A stretch of 64,000 bases of DNA from an uncultured bacterium (lineage in GTDB: Bacteria; Verrucomicrobiota; Kiritimatiellia; RFP12; UBA1067): the NCBI GenBank assembly GCA_902799955.1, contig CADCCQ010000002.1, positions 4,017 through 68,016 on the forward strand. The letters are read 5' to 3'. Each line of letters starts with the position of its first letter. Position 1 is the stretch's first letter. The notes below the pieces were generated by a model. The model was not told the DNA's origin and made no database searches. It saw nothing but the letters and a program-made list of their open reading frames with translations. The position numbers and the translations under genes are program-made. Shown here in pieces: positions 50,113-59,125 of the stretch.

Positions 50113-50225
50113 TGTCTTCCTTTCTGTGAGGTGAAAAAGAGCGAGACATGGCGGCGCGGAAAGTATGGAATCATTACGAAACCGACAATGGAATCAAAGG
50201 CGACGCCATGTCTCGTCCCCACTCT

Positions 50226-50254
50226 CTTATACGACAAACGGTACACGGTTTTAA
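50226..50254 (-). promoter_or_regulatory. second promoter type, copy B (early leftward promoter)
   Basis: TTAAAA (50254-50249), 17-nt spacer, TATAAG (50231-50226). The block 50221-50255 is near-identical to 34600-34634. Confidence 0.5.
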
Positions 50255-50377
50255 CGGACAATTTTCTGGAATCGAAGGTCGGCGGACTCCCACCCAGATT
50301 CATCGACAACCTGCTCCTCCCTAGCCGCAGCATCCCGGCGAAACACCTGCTACTTTGTTGAAATATGAAATACTACA

Positions 50378-50407
50378 TTGCTGTTAGACGGCATTTTTTG
50401 GTATAAT
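50378..50407 (+). promoter_or_regulatory. strong sigma70-like promoter of the low-GC island operon
   Basis: TTGCTG (50378-50383), 18-nt spacer, extended -10 TGgTATAAT (50399-50407). Lies 45 nt upstream of the ATG at 50452. Confidence 0.6.
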
Positions 50408-50451
50408 ATATGTCACTTGCATATAAAAACACATGACAAGAGAAGCCAAGC

Positions 50452-50673
50452 ATGACTACAACGCTTAGACTCAACGACGATTTGAAACGCGCCTGCGACG
50501 CGATCCTCGATGACATCGGGATCTCGTTCAGCGCAGCTGTGACCATTTTCATGAACGAGGTCGTAAGAACCGGCGGCATCCCGTTCATGGTGCGCTCGCC
50601 CAAGGCCGTCGGCCCGGCAAAGGATATGCAGACCAAGCCGGAGCCTGACAGCGAAAAGCGGCAGGAGGAGTGA
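50452..50673 (+). CDS. RelB/DinJ-family ribbon-helix-helix antitoxin-like protein (73 aa)
   Basis: MTTTLRLNDDLKRACDAILDDIGISFSAAVTIFMNEVVRTGGIPFMV is the canonical DinJ/RelB N-terminal pattern. Confidence 0.8.
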   Translation: MTTTLRLNDDLKRACDAILDDIGISFSAAVTIFMNEVVRTGGIPFMVRSPKAVGPAKDMQTKPEPDSEKRQEE

Positions 50674-50674
50674 C

Positions 50675-51451
50675 ATGACAACAGCCCCTACCATCAACAT
50701 ACAGCATCTTGGAATTCTGTCTGCCGTCCTTGATATGGACGATGACGGATGTGCCGTTGCGGTTGACGAGGTTGCGAACACAAGCAGCGCAAATGGACTG
50801 TCCATTGCTGATGTCCAGAAGAAAGTCAAGGCTTATTTCCATCTTACGGCGAATGACAATATCCAACGCTATATGATGGAATGCTTGATGTGGATCGCCC
50901 AAAAAACAGACCGCGACAAAAGCACAACAATCTCCTATTGCGAGTGGACTACAGAAAGTCGCCAGATCATTTCAAGAATCTACACCAAACGATTGATAGA
51001 CTATTTCTCGAAATGTTCAATAGACGAGCGAGCAAGGGAAATGGCTGCAGTAAGTTCACAAGACCCCTTGTTCATTAGGCACATCGAATTGCTTGGGGAA
51101 GAGGGACTACCTCTACTCACCAGGGCACTTGAGGCTTACTGCTCTGCCGAAATGAACAGGCAAAAGTGGTACGAATATGAGTTGTACAACGAAGACGATC
51201 TCATGGAATATGAGAGCCGGCTGCTGAATAAGCACGATGAAATCTTCAACAGGGCGCACAACCCTGGGCAAAGCGACGAGGCAAGAGGCGCAGAAACGCT
51301 AAGGATGTGCAGCAGCCAGGGAGACGCAATCCCGCTTGCAGACAAACCGACCCAGGGAAGAATGGCAGAAGGAACGTATCATCGCATTGCCAACAAAGGC
51401 GACACGATTGGATGGCATCCGCAATGGCCGGATAAGATCAAGAGGGACTGA
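50675..51451 (+). CDS. 258-aa protein, candidate first (CTD-bearing) component of an ABC-3C-type system; no recognised effector domain
   Basis: GGAGGAG SD. Start is 1 nt after the RHH stop. C-terminal GTYHRIANKGDTIGWHPQW motif. The call rests on gene order upstream of the MC-like and DUF3732 genes. Confidence 0.45.
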   Translation: MTTAPTINIQHLGILSAVLDMDDDGCAVAVDEVANTSSANGLSIADVQKKVKAYFHLTANDNIQRYMMECLMWIAQKTDRDKSTTISYCEWTTESRQIISRIYTKRLIDYFSKCSIDERAREMAAVSSQDPLFIRHIELLGEEGLPLLTRALEAYCSAEMNRQKWYEYELYNEDDLMEYESRLLNKHDEIFNRAHNPGQSDEARGAETLRMCSSQGDAIPLADKPTQGRMAEGTYHRIANKGDTIGWHPQWPDKIKRD

Positions 51452-51457
51452 GGCAGC

Positions 51458-51970
51458 ATGAAAGCAGATAGTAGTCTTCTCGTTGATGAGTACCGCACAT
51501 GGCACACGCCTGTTATTGGCGCGTATCTGCTATACCTTTTCACGGAGGCGTACAAGGGAAGCCATCCAGAAGGACGCGCACCCATCGTCATCCTACATTT
51601 CATAGCCGCTGCAATCCTTACCGATGATGCGCTCGCCGACAAGCTAAAACGGAAAACATCTCTCGTCCAATATGTGCGACACGCCCGAAATGGCGACACG
51701 TCGCTCCACTTTATGAAACTGCACGAGCGCACGCGTTCTCGCTTTTCGTACACAGCCAGAGCTATTGACATCGCGGTTGCGGGCGGATATCTCAAATGGG
51801 ACGTGGACTCGGCGAGCCTAACCGCCTGCAAATTGGCAAGCAGACCGGGAAGCGGGGACTTCAAAACAGGGCGCATCAAAGAGCTTGGCGAACGCGCAAA
51901 ACTTCTTGGGCGCATCATGGCAAGGACAACATTGCCCAAAACGGCAGAACTATTAGGAGTGTCGCTATAA
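51458..51970 (+). CDS. 170-aa helical protein, candidate ABC-3C middle component
   Basis: Size and its position directly upstream of, and overlapping (TAATG), the DUF3732-type ATPase gene. Confidence 0.5.
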   Translation: MKADSSLLVDEYRTWHTPVIGAYLLYLFTEAYKGSHPEGRAPIVILHFIAAAILTDDALADKLKRKTSLVQYVRHARNGDTSLHFMKLHERTRSRFSYTARAIDIAVAGGYLKWDVDSASLTACKLASRPGSGDFKTGRIKELGERAKLLGRIMARTTLPKTAELLGVSL

Positions 51971-54000
51971 TGCAATTCCAAATCGATCGCATTATCGTAT
52001 GGCCGAAAGACGACAGTCTGAGGAGGAACGAGGTCTTGTTCCAAAGGAACACGGTCAATGTCATCTCGGGAGCATCAAGAACTGGGAAATCCGCGATCTG
52101 CGGTTTGATTGATTACTGCATGGGCAGCAAGGAGTGTTCGATCCCAGTCGGCGTCGTGCGGGACAACGCTGCGTGGTATGGCATCGTAGCACACACAGCC
52201 GAAGGACGAATACTGTTCGCGAGGCGGAATCCTGCAGACAAGGAAAAAACAAGTTTGGACTGCCGGATCATACCAATATTAGCGGACAGCGACATCCCTG
52301 ATTCGATAAGAGAAGAGCCGAACCGTGAGAATACAGACGACGTGGTTCAAAAGTTGTCGCGCCTCGCTGGGATTACAGACGTTGGCAGGGAGGACACCCC
52401 CGGAAGGACAAATGACGACGGCCATTTGAGCTTCAGGGACATAGCGCATATGCTATTCCAAGTTCAAGACATCATGACAAGTCGCTATATGCTGTTCTAC
52501 AAGTTGCACGTTTCATTCAGCAGGGACAAGCTAAGGGACTGGTTTAATTTCATCATAGGCGCGGAAACACTTATGGAGGTGCTGAAGCGCAAAGAAGTAA
52601 AAGCGCTGCGCCTAAAGCTCGATACTTTACAGGACAATTACGAACGAGCCAAAAATGCAGCGAATGTTTTTCTGTCATCCATCCGAGACAAGATGGTGGA
52701 GGCTGTTAAGTTTGGCCTTTGCCCTGCCGATGGTCTGCCAGAAGACCACGACAAGCTGATAGCACTTGCTACCAAGATTGCGCAAGACAGCGGAGACACT
52801 CAAACTAAGGCAAGCTCAGAGACGCTAAAGGCATACCGAAAGGAAATCCGCACCCTCAAGAAACAAAACGAATTTCTGGATTCCGAAATCCGCAGGGTAA
52901 ACAAGGAAATGTCGGAATTCGAGTCTCTCATCGAAAACCTGAACCTTTACAATAGTGCAAATGCCGCAAAGAAGGAGCGTTTGAAGATTGCCAAGTGGAT
53001 GCGGGAGAATTGGCATGATGCCGGCGAATGCACAGCATCAGGAAAAGATGGTTACAACAAAGCTGTTGCCGAGCTAGACAAGATTTGCTCCGTCGTCCAG
53101 CGATGCGAAGATGCGGCTTCCGCGACAAGTGCCGTAAATCCTCAAGACATCTCAGAGTACCAGAACCTAAAGCGGCGCAGCGAAGAGTTGATTGAGACAT
53201 TAAGGCGGAACGAGCAGCAAATCAAGGCGCTCCAAAACACGCAAGTCTCTGTGCAGTCCGTTAAAATGAACCAGCTAATCGGTGAAATTAGACAAGTCAT
53301 TGCTACTGCCGAACACATCAAGGAACACGAGGGCATCTATAAGCAAATCTCGGAAGTAAAAGCGCAGTTGGACGCGGCGACAAAAGAATGCGATGAGGGA
53401 GCAATCCGGGCAAGGGCGAAGGAGAGAATAGAGGCTATCCAGCGAATTGCACTCGAACGGCTTAATTCGCTTGACTGCGAAGACGAGTACAGGATGAATC
53501 CTCCGATCTTCGACAAGAACGAAATGAATTTGTCGGTCGTGGATTCCCACGGCTCCAGGCATAATCTTAGCGAGGTCGGAAGTGCTTCAAACTGGGTGTC
53601 AATGCACATCGCATTTTCCTGCGCATTCCAGGAGTTCTTCTCAAAAATGGCAGCGCCGGCTTCGTGCGTGCCGAATTTCATGGTATTTGACCAGCCAAGC
53701 CAAGTGTATTTTCCGGCTGTGTCAAATCTAAGGCAAGGAAACCAATACGACGAGATTTTGAAGAACCTCGACAATGTCAAGCTTGATAGCGATGACAGGG
53801 AGAGCGTGAGAAAGATATTCTCAACGCTTTCGCATTCAACAAGAGATTCCAATTTCCACTGGCAAGCCATCGTTCTTGAACACGCAGGCGAGGATGTTTA
53901 CGGCAATGTTGATGGCGTTGTCGAATGCGCGAACTGGCATAATGGCGATGCATTGATTCCGAAGGCTTGGTACGAAAAACCTAACACGGCAGAGATTTAG
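51970..54000 (+). CDS. DUF3732-type coiled-coil ABC/SMC-like ATPase (676 aa)
   Basis: Walker A GASRTGKS (res 34-41), about 280-aa heptad-rich middle, GSASNW signature-like motif, Walker B FMVFDQPSQ (D about 574), VLEHAGED. The true ATG is 51970, not the track start at 51796. Confidence 0.8.
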   Translation: MQFQIDRIIVWPKDDSLRRNEVLFQRNTVNVISGASRTGKSAICGLIDYCMGSKECSIPVGVVRDNAAWYGIVAHTAEGRILFARRNPADKEKTSLDCRIIPILADSDIPDSIREEPNRENTDDVVQKLSRLAGITDVGREDTPGRTNDDGHLSFRDIAHMLFQVQDIMTSRYMLFYKLHVSFSRDKLRDWFNFIIGAETLMEVLKRKEVKALRLKLDTLQDNYERAKNAANVFLSSIRDKMVEAVKFGLCPADGLPEDHDKLIALATKIAQDSGDTQTKASSETLKAYRKEIRTLKKQNEFLDSEIRRVNKEMSEFESLIENLNLYNSANAAKKERLKIAKWMRENWHDAGECTASGKDGYNKAVAELDKICSVVQRCEDAASATSAVNPQDISEYQNLKRRSEELIETLRRNEQQIKALQNTQVSVQSVKMNQLIGEIRQVIATAEHIKEHEGIYKQISEVKAQLDAATKECDEGAIRARAKERIEAIQRIALERLNSLDCEDEYRMNPPIFDKNEMNLSVVDSHGSRHNLSEVGSASNWVSMHIAFSCAFQEFFSKMAAPASCVPNFMVFDQPSQVYFPAVSNLRQGNQYDEILKNLDNVKLDSDDRESVRKIFSTLSHSTRDSNFHWQAIVLEHAGEDVYGNVDGVVECANWHNGDALIPKAWYEKPNTAEI

Positions 54001-54002
54001 TC

Positions 54003-54680
54003 ATGGAGAATCCATCTTCATATAAAGCGATTGGGGACCTCGCAAAGTGCATCGGCAATCTTTCTGCTAGACTTGACGCTGGATCAACTCCGCCCGAGGT
54101 TCTTCTTTCGCCGAAGCAACCAGTATTCTCGCTCCTGACGACATTGTTGCCAACCATTGCCGATGACAAATCTTTGGGAAGAACAGAACAGCTCGAATGT
54201 GCAAAGCTTGATCAAGCAATGCAGGGGTTGTTCAAGAAATGCAAAATTCTCGCGGGAATGGCACTCGCGAAAGACATATCGCTGTCCTGGTCATCCATAT
54301 ACGCAATTCTAAAGCGAGGCAATCGAGACGAAGCATCGGGAGAATCCATCGCGATGTTGATGACCGAAATTACAGACAGGCTCTCTGAGTTTTGCAACTG
54401 CAGCAAAGCAAAGAAGAAATCTGTGCGCAAGTCTCGAATGGGCAGTGGACTACGCGGCACAAAAACAAAGAAAATGGACGATCAACTATCGGACTTCAAG
54501 GCGTGGCTCCTTGACAATCCGGCTAAGGATACTGACAAAACCAAAACCATCGGAGCAAGAGCGACCCAATACTGGAACCAAAACAAGAAGGCCATGACAA
54601 AAGCGGCAAAAGAAATCGGCGAAAAACGTGGCTACTCAAATGCCAAAGCCCTCGCTCAATCCTATCGTAAGACGAAATAG
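54003..54680 (+). CDS. 225-aa orphan protein with Lys-rich C-terminal half, coupled to the ATPase gene
   Basis: ATG lies 2 nt after the ATPase stop. Same low GC as the island. No family recognised. Confidence 0.55.
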   Translation: MENPSSYKAIGDLAKCIGNLSARLDAGSTPPEVLLSPKQPVFSLLTTLLPTIADDKSLGRTEQLECAKLDQAMQGLFKKCKILAGMALAKDISLSWSSIYAILKRGNRDEASGESIAMLMTEITDRLSEFCNCSKAKKKSVRKSRMGSGLRGTKTKKMDDQLSDFKAWLLDNPAKDTDKTKTIGARATQYWNQNKKAMTKAAKEIGEKRGYSNAKALAQSYRKTK

Positions 54681-54717
54681 TACTACGCAATTCCCGTTTT
54701 CAGCGTAGTAGTTTTCC
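54681..54717 (+). terminator. hairpin after island operon
   Basis: TACTACGC, 14-nt loop, GCGTAGTA, then GTTTTCC. Confidence 0.4.
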
Positions 54718-54745
54718 TAACTACGCTACTATTCCGAACCTCATA

Positions 54746-54780
54746 AACCCCAGCTTTTGCTGGGGTTTTTCGTTATTTTC
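54746..54780 (+). terminator. rho-independent terminator of the island operon
   Basis: AACCCCAGC, TTTT loop, GCTGGGGTT, then TTTCGTTATTTT. Confidence 0.7.
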
Positions 54781-54919
54781 AGTTCTCCATCAATCACAAA
54801 CAAACAACTTTACTACGCCGAGATTTATCTTATTCGCGTGATTCGGGGCAATGCGCCTACCGTCGCACAGTGCGACAGCGGGGACTGCAAAACCCACGAA
54901 TTGCAGAATAGGAAACATA

Positions 54920-55159
54920 ATGGCAAAGAGTTATGCTCCCGTCAGGAGCAAACGGCAAAAACGCGGTACGATGGCAGGGTTCTATCGCCGCTGCGAAGCA
55001 TTCTATGCTCAGATCGATTGGGATCTTGAATGCGAAAGACGCAGACGCGTAGACTGGAAATGCACCCAAAACAAACCGGCACTCCCTAAGTCTGGCACGG
55101 AGGGAATGCATATCGACAAAAGCCTTGTCGGGCTTCTTCTTGAAAAGAAGGAGGCGTGA
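54920..55159 (+). CDS. hypothetical small basic protein (79 aa)
   Basis: ATG at 54920 after AGGAAACATA. Two inverted repeats lie upstream (GTCGCAC-a-GTGCGAC at 54863-54877; CTGCAA-N10-TTGCAG). Confidence 0.4.
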   Translation: MAKSYAPVRSKRQKRGTMAGFYRRCEAFYAQIDWDLECERRRRVDWKCTQNKPALPKSGTEGMHIDKSLVGLLLEKKEA

Positions 55160-55160
55160 C

Positions 55161-55427
55161 ATGGCGACTCCCAATAGAAATGCCAAACGCTGGCCGTCCC
55201 GTCTTGCAGGCTCAGCTTCTTGCCTTCACAAGGAGATTGTCTCTCCAGGCTCATACTGCACAGTTCCAATCTGCGGATCGGAACTAGACCTGTCGGATGA
55301 CATCTGCGAGAGCGAGCGCAGCCTCGAAGCGTTCGAGGAGTTGGTCAACAACGACGCCTTCATGGAGAGGCGTTTCTCCGCTATCTGCGACATGCACGGC
55401 GGAAGATGCTGGGAGGTGGCGCGATGA
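55161..55427 (+). CDS. hypothetical Cys-containing small protein (88 aa)
   Basis: AAGGAGG SD. ATGA overlap with the sigma-factor gene. Its position is compatible with an anti-sigma or regulator role, which is unverified. Confidence 0.45.
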   Translation: MATPNRNAKRWPSRLAGSASCLHKEIVSPGSYCTVPICGSELDLSDDICESERSLEAFEELVNNDAFMERRFSAICDMHGGRCWEVAR

Positions 55428-56290
55428 AAGTTCCCGCCATTTCAATTCGCGTCCGCACCTACTTGCGGACCGGCTCTGGAGAGCATCTCGTCTCCGACAG
55501 GGTTCTCAAGCCGCTGACTGCGGCGGAGCGTCGCCAGGGAATGCGCGACGAACTGCGCGAATACATCGAAAAGCACGGCATCCCCGGCACTAAGCGCAAG
55601 GGGAAGCGGCGATACAAGCCAAGCGCACGCGAACTCGACTGCGGAGCGGACACATCGTTGAACATGGCATTCGACGCCGACGGGGTTCCGTCCACGGAGG
55701 ATCAGGAGGCGATGTACAAGATGATGCGCTCGCACCTCTCCCTCGTCGCAAGCGATCTCGCGGCAAGCGGGGTCATATCGTTCAGCGACGTCCAAGACGC
55801 GGAGATGCAGTTCTTCGGCGTCTGCCGAGACTCTCTGGCGAAATGGGACCCGCAGAAGGCCAGCCTCAAGACATTCCTGTACGAATGCGTCGCAAACGCG
55901 AAGCTCGACTTCGTGAAGTCGATCAAGCGCGCGAAACGTTCGTTTTCGCATACGCACATCCCCATAGAAAACGAGGCTACCGACGGCGATGCCGAGGCGG
56001 GCAGGGACGATTCTCTGAATGGAACCGTCAACGAGGAGGCTCTGTGTGACCGCCATGCGCTTGAGCGGATGGAGTTCATGTGGGCACTCCACGATTTCGT
56101 GGCGCTACTCGACCCAGACGAGAAGCTCGCGCTTGACTACCTTCTGCACGACCACACGCAGGATGAGACCGCAAAGTGGATGGGCTGCACGCTCATGCAG
56201 TTCCGCCGCCACATACTGCAGTCACTCCAGATGAAGGCAGTTCTATGCGGCTTTACACCCCACAATGGCTCGGAAATTTGCAAAGGATAG
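55424..56290 (+). CDS. ECF-like sigma-70 family factor with N-terminal extension (288 aa)
   Basis: Region-2-like DVQDAEMQFFGVCRDSLAKWDPQKASLKTFLYECVANAKLDFVKSIKR. Region-4-like LDPDEKLALDYLLHDHTQDETAKWMGCTLMQFRRHI. Confidence 0.6.
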   Translation: MKVPAISIRVRTYLRTGSGEHLVSDRVLKPLTAAERRQGMRDELREYIEKHGIPGTKRKGKRRYKPSARELDCGADTSLNMAFDADGVPSTEDQEAMYKMMRSHLSLVASDLAASGVISFSDVQDAEMQFFGVCRDSLAKWDPQKASLKTFLYECVANAKLDFVKSIKRAKRSFSHTHIPIENEATDGDAEAGRDDSLNGTVNEEALCDRHALERMEFMWALHDFVALLDPDEKLALDYLLHDHTQDETAKWMGCTLMQFRRHILQSLQMKAVLCGFTPHNGSEICKG

Positions 56291-56296
56291 GGGGCA

Positions 56297-56827
56297 ATGA
56301 TGAAAACATCAGATTTATCAACATTCCCACTTGATATATCCCCCGTCATTACGGCATCATATCGGTCGGAAAGCATGAAAGGCGAAATGGAAGACGACAT
56401 TCGACATGAGATCGACCGACTCGCAGCGCTCGACCACGAGGCGCTGAAGATGGAATATCTCTCCCGTTTCGGCGGCACGGCGACCTTCGGCGATGTCTTC
56501 ATGCGCCGCCGCCTTGCGCAGCAAATCCAGGAGGATCGGCTCGGTGGCCTCACCGCCACGGAAATCGAACTGCTCGCGCGGGTCGCCCGCAAGGACGGAC
56601 GCGCAAACCCACGCGCCACGCGCAAGGCGAACCCCGCCGTGCGCGGCGTCACCTACACCCGGATGTATAAGGGACGCCTCGTCGCCGTGACGGCAGCGGG
56701 ACACGGGCAGTTCGAGTACGAAGGACAGCTCTATCCGTCCCTCACGGCCTGCGTCAAGGCAATCACGGGGACTCACTACTCTGGACGCAAGTTCTTCAGA
56801 CTTGGAGGCGAGCCATGCAGCAGGTAA
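56297..56827 (+). CDS. DUF2924-like protein (176 aa)
   Basis: GVTYTRMYKGRLVAVTAAGHGQFEYEGQLYPSLTACVKAITGTHYSGRKFFRL. Typical partner found upstream of large serine recombinases. Confidence 0.7.
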   Translation: MMKTSDLSTFPLDISPVITASYRSESMKGEMEDDIRHEIDRLAALDHEALKMEYLSRFGGTATFGDVFMRRRLAQQIQEDRLGGLTATEIELLARVARKDGRANPRATRKANPAVRGVTYTRMYKGRLVAVTAAGHGQFEYEGQLYPSLTACVKAITGTHYSGRKFFRLGGEPCSR

Positions 56828-58110
56828 TACGGTGTGCCGTCTACACGCGCAAGAGCGTGGAGGAGGGGCTAGAGCAGGAGTTCAACACGCTCGATGCCCA
56901 GCGGATGGCTTGCGAGGCTTATATCGCCGCCAAGCGTCTTGAAGGCTGGACGTGTCTTCCCGACCGCTACGACGACGGCGGCTATTCCGGAGGCAACCTG
57001 AAGCGTCCCGCGTTCCAGAGACTGATGGACGATGTCCGCGCCGGCTGTGTGGACATGATAGTCTGCTACAAGATCGACCGACTCTCCCGCTCGCTCCTGG
57101 ACTTCACGCAGGTCTTCAACGAGCTGGAGAAGCACCACGTCTCGTTCTCGTGTGTCACGCAGGAGCTGAACACCTCGACCTCGATGGGGAGGATGTGCAT
57201 GAACCTCCTCATGACATTCGCGCAGTTCGAGCGGGAGCTTGCCTCAGAACGCACGTCGGACAAGATGGCGGCAACGAGGCGCAAGGGAATCTGGCCGGGC
57301 GGGACGGTACCATATGGCTACAAACGAATCGAGAAGCGGCTCGTCGTCGATCCAGACACAGCCCCGAACGTCGTGAAGATCTTCGAGTGGTATCTCGAAC
57401 TCGGGACGCCAAAGCTCGTCGCCAAGCGCCTCACCGAGAACGGCATACTCCGCTTCCCGGAGAGGAACAAGCCATTCGACACGGTAATGGTCGCGACAGC
57501 GCTCCGCAACTGCGTCTACATCGGTCGTGTCCCGCTGAAGAACGAATCCTTCAAAGGCATACACGAACCCATCATCGACATGGATCTGTGGGACAAGGTG
57601 GCGGCCCGGCTGAAGAACGTCGAGTTCAAGCCGAGGACGGAGCGGCGCGCCACCTCTCCGGCACTGCTGACAGGGCTTCTCCGCTGCGGACATTGCGGCG
57701 ACGCGCTCTCCTACACCTGGACTGGCAAGAACCGCAGCGGACAAATCCGCTACGGATACTACACGTGCCGAAAGGACATGAGGCGCGGTGTCTCGACCTG
57801 CTCGGTAAAGTCCGTTCCGGCACAACTGATCGAGCCGCTTGTCGAGTCCGAGGCGGTCGCGTTCCTAAAGACCCCGACAATGCTCCGCGCCCTCGCGGGG
57901 GAACGCCATATCTCGCCGTTCGAGATGCGAAGGCAGCTCGACTCGCCAGAGGAGTTTTGGACGTCCCTGACGCCGGCCGCCAAGCGCGAACTGCTATCAA
58001 GAATCATAGAAACTGTGACGGTCTACGAATCGTCCGTCGACATAAAGTTCAAGGTAAAGGGCGACAAACGCCTCATGGAGGAGTTCAAGAATGAACATCA
58101 TGGAAACTGA
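56815..58110 (+). CDS. large serine recombinase (integrase), 431 aa
   Basis: RCAVYTRKSVEEGLEQEFNTLDAQ (catalytic Ser region), YKIDRLSRS, recombinase and Zn-ribbon region CGHCGD...YYTC. Confidence 0.9.
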   Translation: MQQVIRCAVYTRKSVEEGLEQEFNTLDAQRMACEAYIAAKRLEGWTCLPDRYDDGGYSGGNLKRPAFQRLMDDVRAGCVDMIVCYKIDRLSRSLLDFTQVFNELEKHHVSFSCVTQELNTSTSMGRMCMNLLMTFAQFERELASERTSDKMAATRRKGIWPGGTVPYGYKRIEKRLVVDPDTAPNVVKIFEWYLELGTPKLVAKRLTENGILRFPERNKPFDTVMVATALRNCVYIGRVPLKNESFKGIHEPIIDMDLWDKVAARLKNVEFKPRTERRATSPALLTGLLRCGHCGDALSYTWTGKNRSGQIRYGYYTCRKDMRRGVSTCSVKSVPAQLIEPLVESEAVAFLKTPTMLRALAGERHISPFEMRRQLDSPEEFWTSLTPAAKRELLSRIIETVTVYESSVDIKFKVKGDKRLMEEFKNEHHGN

Positions 58111-58869: not shown

Positions 58870-58945
<76 letters not shown>

Positions 58946-58961
58946 GCACCTTTGGCCGAAA

Positions 58962-59037
58962 TGGTAGGGGCGCAGGGATTCGAACCCTGGACCCAGTGAT
59001 TAAGAGTCACTTGCTCTACCAGCTGAGCTACGCCCCC
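58962..59037 (-). tRNA. tRNA-Lys(CTT): tRNA-Lys (anticodon CTT), CCA encoded
   Basis: Acceptor GGGGGCG/CGCCCCT (G1-U72 wobble), anticodon stem-loop AGTGA-CTCTTAA-TCACT, T arm CAGGG-TTCGAAT-CCCTG. 76 nt. Confidence 0.85.
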
Positions 59038-59049
59038 ATTTCACTGTTT

Positions 59050-59125
59050 TGGAGCGAGGAACGGGATTCGAACCCGCGACAACCACCTTGGCAAGGTGGC
59101 ACTCTACCAACTGAGTTATCCTCGC
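59050..59125 (-). tRNA. tRNA-Gly(GCC): tRNA-Gly (anticodon GCC), CCA encoded
   Basis: Acceptor GCGAGGA/TCCTCGC, anticodon stem-loop CCACC-TTGCCAA-GGTGG, T arm GCGGG-TTCGAAT-CCCGT. 76 nt. Confidence 0.85.

Follow-up and report, generated by a model that had tools for sequence, protein, structure and literature searches.

A prophage-borne short Lamassu cassette of the Kiritimatiellae with an effector-less LmuA and a coupled fourth gene

The stretch of DNA analysed here, 64,000 nucleotides (nt) from an uncultured bacterium of the Kiritimatiellia (GenBank assembly GCA_902799955.1, contig CADCCQ010000002.1, positions 4,017 to 68,016; hereafter the window), carries within a prophage a horizontally acquired short-type, type II Lamassu cassette (50675-54780) that consists of lmuA, lmuC, lmuB and a fourth gene. 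The accepted Lamassu mechanism ends with the oligomerisation of an effector domain that is fused to LmuA. The LmuA of the window very probably comprises the C-terminal sequestration and oligomerisation domain only, the N-terminal effector of about 170 amino acids (aa) being absent, and the gene coupled to the end of lmuB appears from sequence comparisons to be a clade-wide feature of Lamassu systems with such an LmuA. We lean slightly towards reading the cassette as a prophage-borne split-effector Lamassu whose output would come from the fourth gene, the last of five co-directional genes and hence called gene 5 (Table 1). The triad formed by genes 2-4 is known and structurally understood; what is new is an effector-less LmuA combined with a fourth gene that recurs across the clade, a combination left unexplained in the literature searched.

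The identity of genes 2-4 as a short, type II Lamassu of the CTD7-MC3 subfamily is almost certain from their sequence relationships, type II Lamassu being the systems also known as ABC-3C (bioRxiv 10.1101/2025.06.23.660979). Beside its PADLOC match, LmuB shows full-length homology to proteins of solved complexes (PDB 9hqu_A at 1.5e-85 over residues 1-668, and 9ny5_D at 4e-70) and matches Pfam DUF3732 at 1.3e-37. Its Walker A (GASRTGKS), signature (GSASNW), Walker B (FMVFDQPSQ) and VLEH motifs are all intact, and its length of 676 aa, together with a Walker A of the form Gx4GK[ST] and a Walker B of the form hhhhD[QSTE], is the form of the 'short' Lamassu (about 600-700 aa). At residues ~350-360 (~53005-53040) the window and the related locus L001 read GECTASG where the more distant loci L016-L019 have the zinc-hook motif CPxCG, so that the window/L001 lineage has lost the CxxC zinc hook, like the LmuB of Vibrio cholerae. 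LmuC, which is encoded between lmuA and lmuB, matches the LmuC of a solved complex (PDB 9hqu_D) at 2.4e-3, and no PADLOC LmuC profile matched it in the PADLOC profile search. The Pfam matches of the locus (RelB, CTD7, MC3 and DUF3732) all exceed the curated cut-offs.

A preliminary description of the locus, made from the sequence by eye, had recognised the ABC-3C triad and the four motifs of gene 4, and both observations hold, the former with CTD7, MC3 and DUF3732 above their cut-offs. The same description took the system to be uncharacterised and known from comparative genomics alone; this has to be given up, as PADLOC and PDB searches place genes 2-4 in the validated type II Lamassu. The CTD7-MC3 subfamily has validated members, cryo-EM structures from 2025 and a worked-out activation mechanism (PMC12663957; bioRxiv 10.1101/2025.03.14.643221, 10.1101/2025.06.23.660979). 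What proved valuable in that description was its remark that the first triad component has no recognisable effector domain, which the searches described below confirm, and its treatment of gene 5 as a lone orphan add-on gives way to that of a coupled fourth gene found clade-wide.

Several searches agree on what LmuA contains and what it lacks. The PADLOC LmuA profile matches gene 2 at 1.1e-13 along profile positions 169-369 of 373 only, leaving positions 1-168 unmatched, and a PDB sequence search aligns residues 46-255 with residues 172-383 of the solved 388-aa LmuA 9nxx_A (E = 0.011 for the LmuA C-terminal domain, or CTD). Among 1.84 billion representative proteins, searched exhaustively, 81 matched, most of them LmuAs of 380-400 aa that align only from their own residue ~145-260 onward. 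No N-terminal effector domain (Cap4, Mrr, Sir2, protease, lipase, HNH and others) was found in LmuA with the Pfam, PADLOC and NCBIfam profiles. The conserved motif GTYH...IGWHPxW is present, and the protein thus appears, by comparison with its homologs, to have the CTD7 domain type that docks on LmuB and LmuC and oligomerises in them. Residues 1-45 were considered as the remnant of a Cap4 N-terminus whose catalytic core had been deleted internally, as a MAFFT alignment would allow, and this was rejected: the Cap4 N-terminal domain profile, which identifies P0018 and P0022 as true truncations, gave no meaningful match.

Comparison of LmuB loci links this short form of LmuA with the additional gene. 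About 130 loci were gathered by a back-translated Walker B DNA pattern and scored automatically; 47 of them were informative and fell into 28 lineages at 70% LmuB identity, and an open reading frame (ORF) coupled to lmuB was counted if it encoded at least 100 aa. Such an ORF follows LmuB in six of the eight short-LmuA lineages and in none of the 20 with a full-length LmuA (Fisher's exact p = 7e-5, a value that overstates the independence of the cases since the carriers form one clade and the association therefore possibly reflects a single ancestral event). Two full-length lineages have a gene 27-48 nt beyond LmuB, one of which looks like antisense junk, and three annotated plasmid systems are canonical three-gene operons (LmuA 384-400 aa) with no coupled downstream gene. 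In the distant short-LmuA loci L016, L017, L018, L020/22 and L023, a protein of 220-530 aa without a Pfam match overlaps or abuts the LmuB stop. All seven fourth-gene lineages belong to a single clade of the LmuB neighbour-joining tree (bootstrap 167/200, 84%), within which LmuB is 30-41% identical between lineages. Judged from these sequences, the four-gene architecture is probably a single old innovation that has been retained since.

The term 'short LmuA' nevertheless covers two different things. In the L019 (LmuA ORF 874-1827) and L158 systems, which have no fourth gene, the short LmuA is a truncated Cap4-type protein with Cap4-like in-frame sequence upstream (for example DKFVLYVNH); both lineages lie outside the four-gene clade and retain Cap4 fragments, and are therefore decayed canonical systems. 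At the other extreme, the 173-aa LmuA of L017 is essentially the CTD7 domain alone and its system still has a fourth gene, so that the output of L017 does not lie within LmuA. As an observation apart, the L018 contig begins inside a gene for a C-5 cytosine DNA methyltransferase (PF00145, 3e-14), whose remaining 3' portion (L018:1-666) overlaps the start of the short lmuA by ~10 nt; this hints at a different upstream partner in that lineage.

The existence of decayed systems raises the question of whether the window holds an inactive relic, its effector lost, its defence gone and gene 5 a piece of unrelated moron cargo that lies downstream by chance. Besides L019 and L158, outright remnants of the very same cassette are found in L009-L012 (for example L010:7299-10678), where LmuA, LmuC and the first 84 LmuB codons are gone, an ORF with a transposase-like helix-turn-helix N-terminus (by sequence reading; insertion-sequence-like) abuts what is left of LmuB, and a frameshift inside Walker B (FDQPAKFTSL and then a stop) has occurred. 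In the window, the ATPase motifs are undamaged, and LmuA, LmuC and LmuB are under strong purifying selection across lineages at synonymous divergences (dS) of up to ~2, with ratios of nonsynonymous to synonymous rates (dN/dS) of 0.05 for LmuA, 0.07-0.10 for LmuC and 0.05 for LmuB, that is, 0.05-0.10 for the triad, which indicates that the system is alive. The persistence of four genes in a clade with LmuBs as divergent as those above, and the cassette-like composition of gene 5 and its translational coupling to LmuB in both the window and the L001 lineage, argue in the same direction, and we regard a relic as very improbable. Gene 5 is intact in the decayed copies; where its constraint after the decay of Lamassu is concerned, these remnants are identical copies of one element. 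In L010-L012 the remnant adjoins GmrSD-family genes.

Gene 5 begins 2 nt past the LmuB stop in the window and overlaps that stop by 4 nt in L001, and its guanine-plus-cytosine (GC) content at third codon positions (GC3, 0.52) matches that of the insert. Its L001 and window copies are 55% identical, whereas the other genes reach 79-90%, and with a dN/dS of 0.17-0.45 it evolves faster than its neighbours and is still constrained. An AlphaFold2 (AF2) model of the protein (mean predicted local distance difference test, pLDDT, 81) has a helical N-terminal region (~5-144) and a disordered linker rich in lysine, arginine and serine (140-152), followed by a lysine-rich C-terminal module of ~85 residues (~143-225; 54429-54680). 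In a profile search this module, with the pattern GSGLxG...QLxxFxxWL...TIGAxA...GEKRGYxNAKxLAxxYR, recurred in P0094 and P0095, joined to unrelated N-termini, and no Pfam or PDB match to it was found; it appears to be a mobile module, and its lysine-rich sequence suggests nucleic-acid binding. We consider it likely, on the sequence evidence, that the fourth gene is functionally part of the system, and tentatively, at somewhat less than even confidence, class its product as an effector or adaptor.

Two further observations concern relatives of gene 5. The module protein of L238:2341-3417 has a HU/DUF4469 protein and a PIN-domain protein as neighbours. In P0093, from a contig with a coverage of 2x (L243), residues 1-158 of a homolog of gene 5 run into a GDSL lipase-like fragment; the probable cause is chimeric assembly or a recombination junction, and the protein was not used.

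The occupants of the fourth slot differ widely. BLASTP and HMM (hidden Markov model) searches found no homologs of gene 5 among the other fourth proteins; hhalign aligned it with the L018/L020 family at E = 1.3e-3 and 18% probability over 117 collinear columns, which is suggestive only, and comparisons that involved the L023 fourth protein gave no match. A combined profile of the fourth proteins found no further members among 11,756 ORFs. A Cap4 domain relocated into the fourth proteins was also looked for, with no match. The L023 fourth protein (L023:7953-9073), which is cut by the contig end, contains two copies of a helical unit of ~130 aa that are 34% identical to each other.

A working model can be drawn from the solved systems. 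In these, the N-terminal Cap4 nuclease of LmuA is joined to a C-terminal domain that LmuB2-LmuC holds and that tetramerises once released, and anti-phage and anti-plasmid activity, the sensing of DNA ends, and the release and tetramerisation of LmuA have been shown for homologs (PMC12663957; bioRxiv 10.1101/2025.03.14.643221). In the window, a conserved promoter with an extended -10 would drive the cassette, which follows the gene of a small RelB-like RHH (ribbon-helix-helix) regulator. By homology, two LmuB and one LmuC would hold one LmuA through its C-terminal domain, the complex would sense DNA ends or replication intermediates of an infecting phage, and ATP hydrolysis by LmuB would release LmuA, whose C-terminal domains would then form tetramers. 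As LmuA has no N-terminal effector, the released oligomer would not itself be the weapon. In this clade the output would most likely be given in trans by the gene 5 protein, translationally coupled to LmuB, which might be either an effector that becomes active when it clusters on the LmuA oligomer or an adaptor through which a host factor is recruited. Autoregulation of the operon is the most likely role of the RHH protein, which would so keep the expression of a potentially toxic system low.

A fuller version of this model is possible, though we hold it to be doubtful as a whole. It posits a distinct four-component split-effector subtype, in which one deep clade would have lost the effector domain; the output would have moved to a separate, fast-evolving and interchangeable helical protein translationally coupled to LmuB; this protein would be activated or recruited by the released oligomer of LmuA C-terminal domains, through a fold and a mechanism new to defence effectors; and the mobile, lysine-rich module of ~85 residues in gene 5 would serve as an effector or targeting domain of a new kind, shared with non-Lamassu proteins.

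Several results weigh against an output from gene 5. Nothing positively marks the protein as an effector: catalytic-looking motifs and transmembrane segments are absent, the window copy has no histidine, no Pfam, PADLOC or NCBIfam profile matched it, and the AF2 model brought up no significant fold match in PDB or BFVD (best E-values ~1). One carrier of its C-terminal module (P0094) is not adjacent to a Lamassu operon, and the module is thus not confined to Lamassu. Among the fourth proteins of the clade, homology is demonstrable only between those of L018 and L020 (5.9e-11), the carriers may go back to the single event mentioned above, and the AF2 model of LmuA itself (mean pLDDT 46) is unusable.

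A rival reading involves no killing module. LmuA(CTD)-LmuC-LmuB might act unaided, for example by clamping phage DNA ends or replication intermediates and so blocking replication or packaging, and gene 5 might be a DNA-binding accessory or a self-immunity or regulatory factor that spares prophage replication on induction. LmuB and LmuC alone do bind DNA ends in solved complexes (PMC12663957). Gene 5 looks non-enzymatic, its lysine-rich module (with 41 K+R against 24 D+E in the protein overall) suggests nucleic-acid binding and is found outside Lamassu too, and a prophage that harbours a sensor of phage replication plausibly needs guarding against self-triggering. However, LmuA is the output in all studied Lamassu, its C-terminal domain is known only to serve in sequestration and oligomerisation, and the dN/dS of the effector-less LmuA is hard to explain if its release does nothing; the great diversity of the fourth slot across the clade is likewise typical of swappable effectors, not of a conserved structural accessory. 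We therefore judge this rival unlikely, and continue to prefer, by a slight leaning, the split-effector reading with an output from gene 5.

The preliminary description had treated all five genes as one unit, which is better seen as four genes plus one. The RHH protein, whose TIGR02384 match exceeds the curated cut-off, is encoded by a gene under purifying selection (dN/dS 0.09-0.11). We think it rather probable, from the sequence comparisons, that it is a lineage-specific regulator and not a core Lamassu part, because its GC3 is phage-like, because it is absent from the rest of the clade (L013/L014, L016-L020 and L023), and because it is the first gene behind the conserved promoter. Its GC is 0.58, and its GC3 of 0.77 lies in the range of the phage genes. 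L013/L014 and L023 adjoin the same DUF3799 gene of the same prophage family and have no RHH gene, and L013/14 is the nearest independent relative of the window system (LmuA 39% and LmuB 50-58% identical), in the same prophage family and position. Telling against a purely regulatory bystander is that, across 80 DUF3799-anchored phage loci, the RHH gene occurred only together with this Lamassu lineage, and a functional tie to this Lamassu is possible. The same result leaves unsupported the idea that the RHH protein is a native prophage repressor that persists while the cargo changes, which was considered and set aside.

An integrated five-gene system, with the RHH protein as an antitoxin-like part that neutralises a toxic partner (LmuA or gene 5), would account for its membership of the RelB/DinJ family, for its confinement to this lineage among the 80 related phage loci and for the gap of just 1 nt to lmuA in the window lineage, and the acidic C-terminal tail of the RHH protein could in principle bind the basic gene 5 protein. 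We consider such a system highly improbable: the GC3 of the RHH gene departs from that of genes 2-5 (0.52-0.58), the spacer to lmuA is 155 nt in the L001 lineage, and the gene is missing from every other member of the four-gene clade, L013/14 included. Moreover, no toxin partner of the RelE, YafQ or ParE type is adjacent, no toxin family matched any of the five proteins with Pfam, PADLOC or NCBIfam, and only ~20 residues follow the RHH fold.

Table 1. Positions of the cassette, its signals and the neighbouring integration features in the window, with the evidence for each.
Feature	Position	Strand	Description and evidence
Candidate promoter of the rightward transcript	50378-50407	+	TTGCTG-N18-TGgTATAAT; weak -35, 18-nt spacer, extended -10; putative function
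RelB/DinJ-type RHH protein, 73 aa	50452-50673	+	Pfam RelB (PF04221) 5.7e-9; TIGR02384 2e-13; phrog_2737 6.2e-14
LmuA, 258 aa	50675-51451	+	CTD7-type C-terminal region only, after ~45 unassigned residues; CTD7 4.7e-13, residues 133-253
LmuC, ABC-3C middle component 3, 170 aa	51458-51970	+	Pfam MC3 4.7e-12, 154/159 profile positions
LmuB, short-type SMC/Rad50-like ABC ATPase, 676 aa	51970-54000	+	PADLOC LmuB 4.7e-93, full length
Fourth gene (gene 5), 225 aa	54003-54680	+	Predicted soluble, all-helical; candidate trans-acting effector or adaptor
Weak hairpin	54681-54712	+	Directly 3' of the gene 5 stop; 8-bp stem, 14-nt loop, -10.2 kcal/mol, z = -3.15
Intrinsic terminator-like hairpin	54745-54778	+	10-bp stem with 6 G-C pairs, T-run after 54768; -18 kcal/mol, z = -5.6
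Serine recombinase	56815-58110		
tRNA cluster (tRNA-Phe, tRNA-Lys, tRNA-Gly)	58870-59125	-	~760 nt beyond the serine recombinase gene

The layout of the locus is largely as first described. The five co-directional ORFs have the coordinates and junctions (+1, +6, -1 and +2 nt, in order) reported there; a longer lmuB ORF from 51796 is also present, and the profile and PDB alignments begin at residue 1 of the 51970 start. The promoter, described then as near-consensus, is readable, and its extended -10 (TGnTATAAT) is kept, together with an upstream block, in four diverged lineages (window, L005, L024 and L001), but the -35 TTGCTG agrees with the consensus at 3/6 positions only, and a consensus scan therefore does not list it. 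Of the two proposed terminators the first is weak and the second strong, and it is the second that is likely to end the cassette transcript. The low GC of the block is real (0.48-0.52 per kb, against 0.61-0.65 in the flanks), although the drop is smaller than hand counts had indicated, and it leaves out the RHH gene: GC3 is low in genes 2-5, compared with 0.70-0.79 in phage genes, and phage-like in the RHH gene, so that the compositionally foreign block is genes 2-5.

Two features of the region in front of the RHH gene may be added. A block of ~50 nt (CGTCCCCACTCTCTTATACGACAAACGGTACACGGTTTTAACGGAC) at ~50210-50262, in the divergent intergenic region, is near-invariant across four lineages and is a candidate for an operator or for the leftward early promoter. 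Immediately 5' of the rightward -35 lies a perfect tandem repeat, TGAAATA-TGAAATA (50359-50372), to which the RHH protein could bind.

The surrounding genes, as identified with PHROGs, include those for the tape measure, head-protease, portal, large terminase, methyltransferase, primase-polymerase and helicase proteins of a prophage, and the tRNA cluster is probably its attachment site and right boundary. That the cassette is cargo of the prophage, placed between the integration module and the early leftward operon, was recognised from the outset and is borne out, as is the expectation that the five genes recur together: they do so in L001-L008 and L024-L026, which belong to the same prophage family and have them flanked by the DUF3799 gene on one side and the DUF2924/recombinase module on the other. 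The metagenomic bins that yielded close homologs are Kiritimatiellae from gut and rumen, and no LmuB relative was found among INPHARED phage records. The interval that matches ~50113-56290 of the window is filled in the closest phage relatives, L027 and L029 (with identities of 93-95% for DUF3799 and 97% for the serine recombinase), by ~6 kb of completely different cargo (L027, 1905-7971). This includes an AAA_14/DUF4143 ATPase that matches the PADLOC candidate PDC-S01 at 1.4e-112, ORFs of 461 and 563 aa without matches, and a protein of 352 aa whose C-terminus is ECF-sigma-like. Different Lamassu alleles occur in further members of this phage family, beside the DUF3799 gene in L013/14 and L023 and in rearranged order in L020/22. 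With different cargo and different Lamassu alleles at one interval, this is a variable defence-cargo hotspot.

The window also contains small ORFs of 102 and 100 aa and a 294-aa ORF without a Pfam match (54851-56290), which separate the cassette from the DUF2924/recombinase genes. The 294-aa protein is 84-90% identical in cassette-bearing relatives, 59% in L020/L022 and ~51% in L032/L036, and is absent from L027 and L029.

The significance of the cassette lies in the question it puts to the established picture. An effector-less clade has been noted before and left unexplained, and the coupled fourth gene offers an experimental handle on it. If the fourth proteins are effectors, they form a set of new output modules without a recognisable fold; if they are not, Lamassu defends without a killing module, which would alter the 'detect-and-kill' picture. 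In addition, the locus documents a hotspot of defence cargo in prophages of the Kiritimatiellae, a little-studied group of the gut and rumen.

Lamassu systems, which rank with the commonest defence families of bacteria, are present in ~15% of genomes (PMC12663957), and those closest in kind to the cassette are the V. cholerae DdmABC/LmuACB and Salmonella enterica LmuACB systems (PDB 9hqu, 9hqx, 9ny5 and 9nxx), with which it shares the gene order lmuA-lmuC-lmuB. In common with the Cap4-CTD7-MC3 Lamassu it has the full-length LmuB homology (1.5e-85), the Walker A and the hhhhDQ Walker B, an MC3-type LmuC and a CTD7-type LmuA C-terminus, and like the V. cholerae protein its LmuB has no zinc hook. 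It differs from them in that its LmuA is without the Cap4 nuclease of ~170 aa, the weapon of those systems, and in that the window adds the lmuB-coupled gene of 225 aa, a preceding RHH gene and carriage on a prophage. The RHH protein, for its part, shares the N-terminal RHH domain of RelB/DinJ type II antitoxins (TIGR02384 2e-13), but stands without a RelE/YafQ-type toxin and resembles an orphan RHH regulator at the head of an operon.

Precedent for an extra protein in the output comes from Lamassu variants with an additional operon-encoded output protein; in these, however, LmuA keeps its effector domain and an enzymatic fold can be recognised in the additional protein, neither of which is the case in the window. 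No report of Lamassu together with LmuD was found in the literature searched. The closest published counterpart is the effector-less 'Clade O' of short Lamassu described by Haudiquet et al., with more than 100 sequences from more than 40 species and intact LmuB and LmuC, whose members are still counted as Lamassu (PMC12663957). Clade O is treated there only in the survey section and the legend of Fig. 1, and the paper names no fourth gene and proposes no mechanism (PMC12663957). The window system shares with it the effector-less LmuA and the untruncated, constrained LmuB and LmuC, a likeness drawn from these features, and the coupled fourth gene across the clade is the observation that the present analysis adds.

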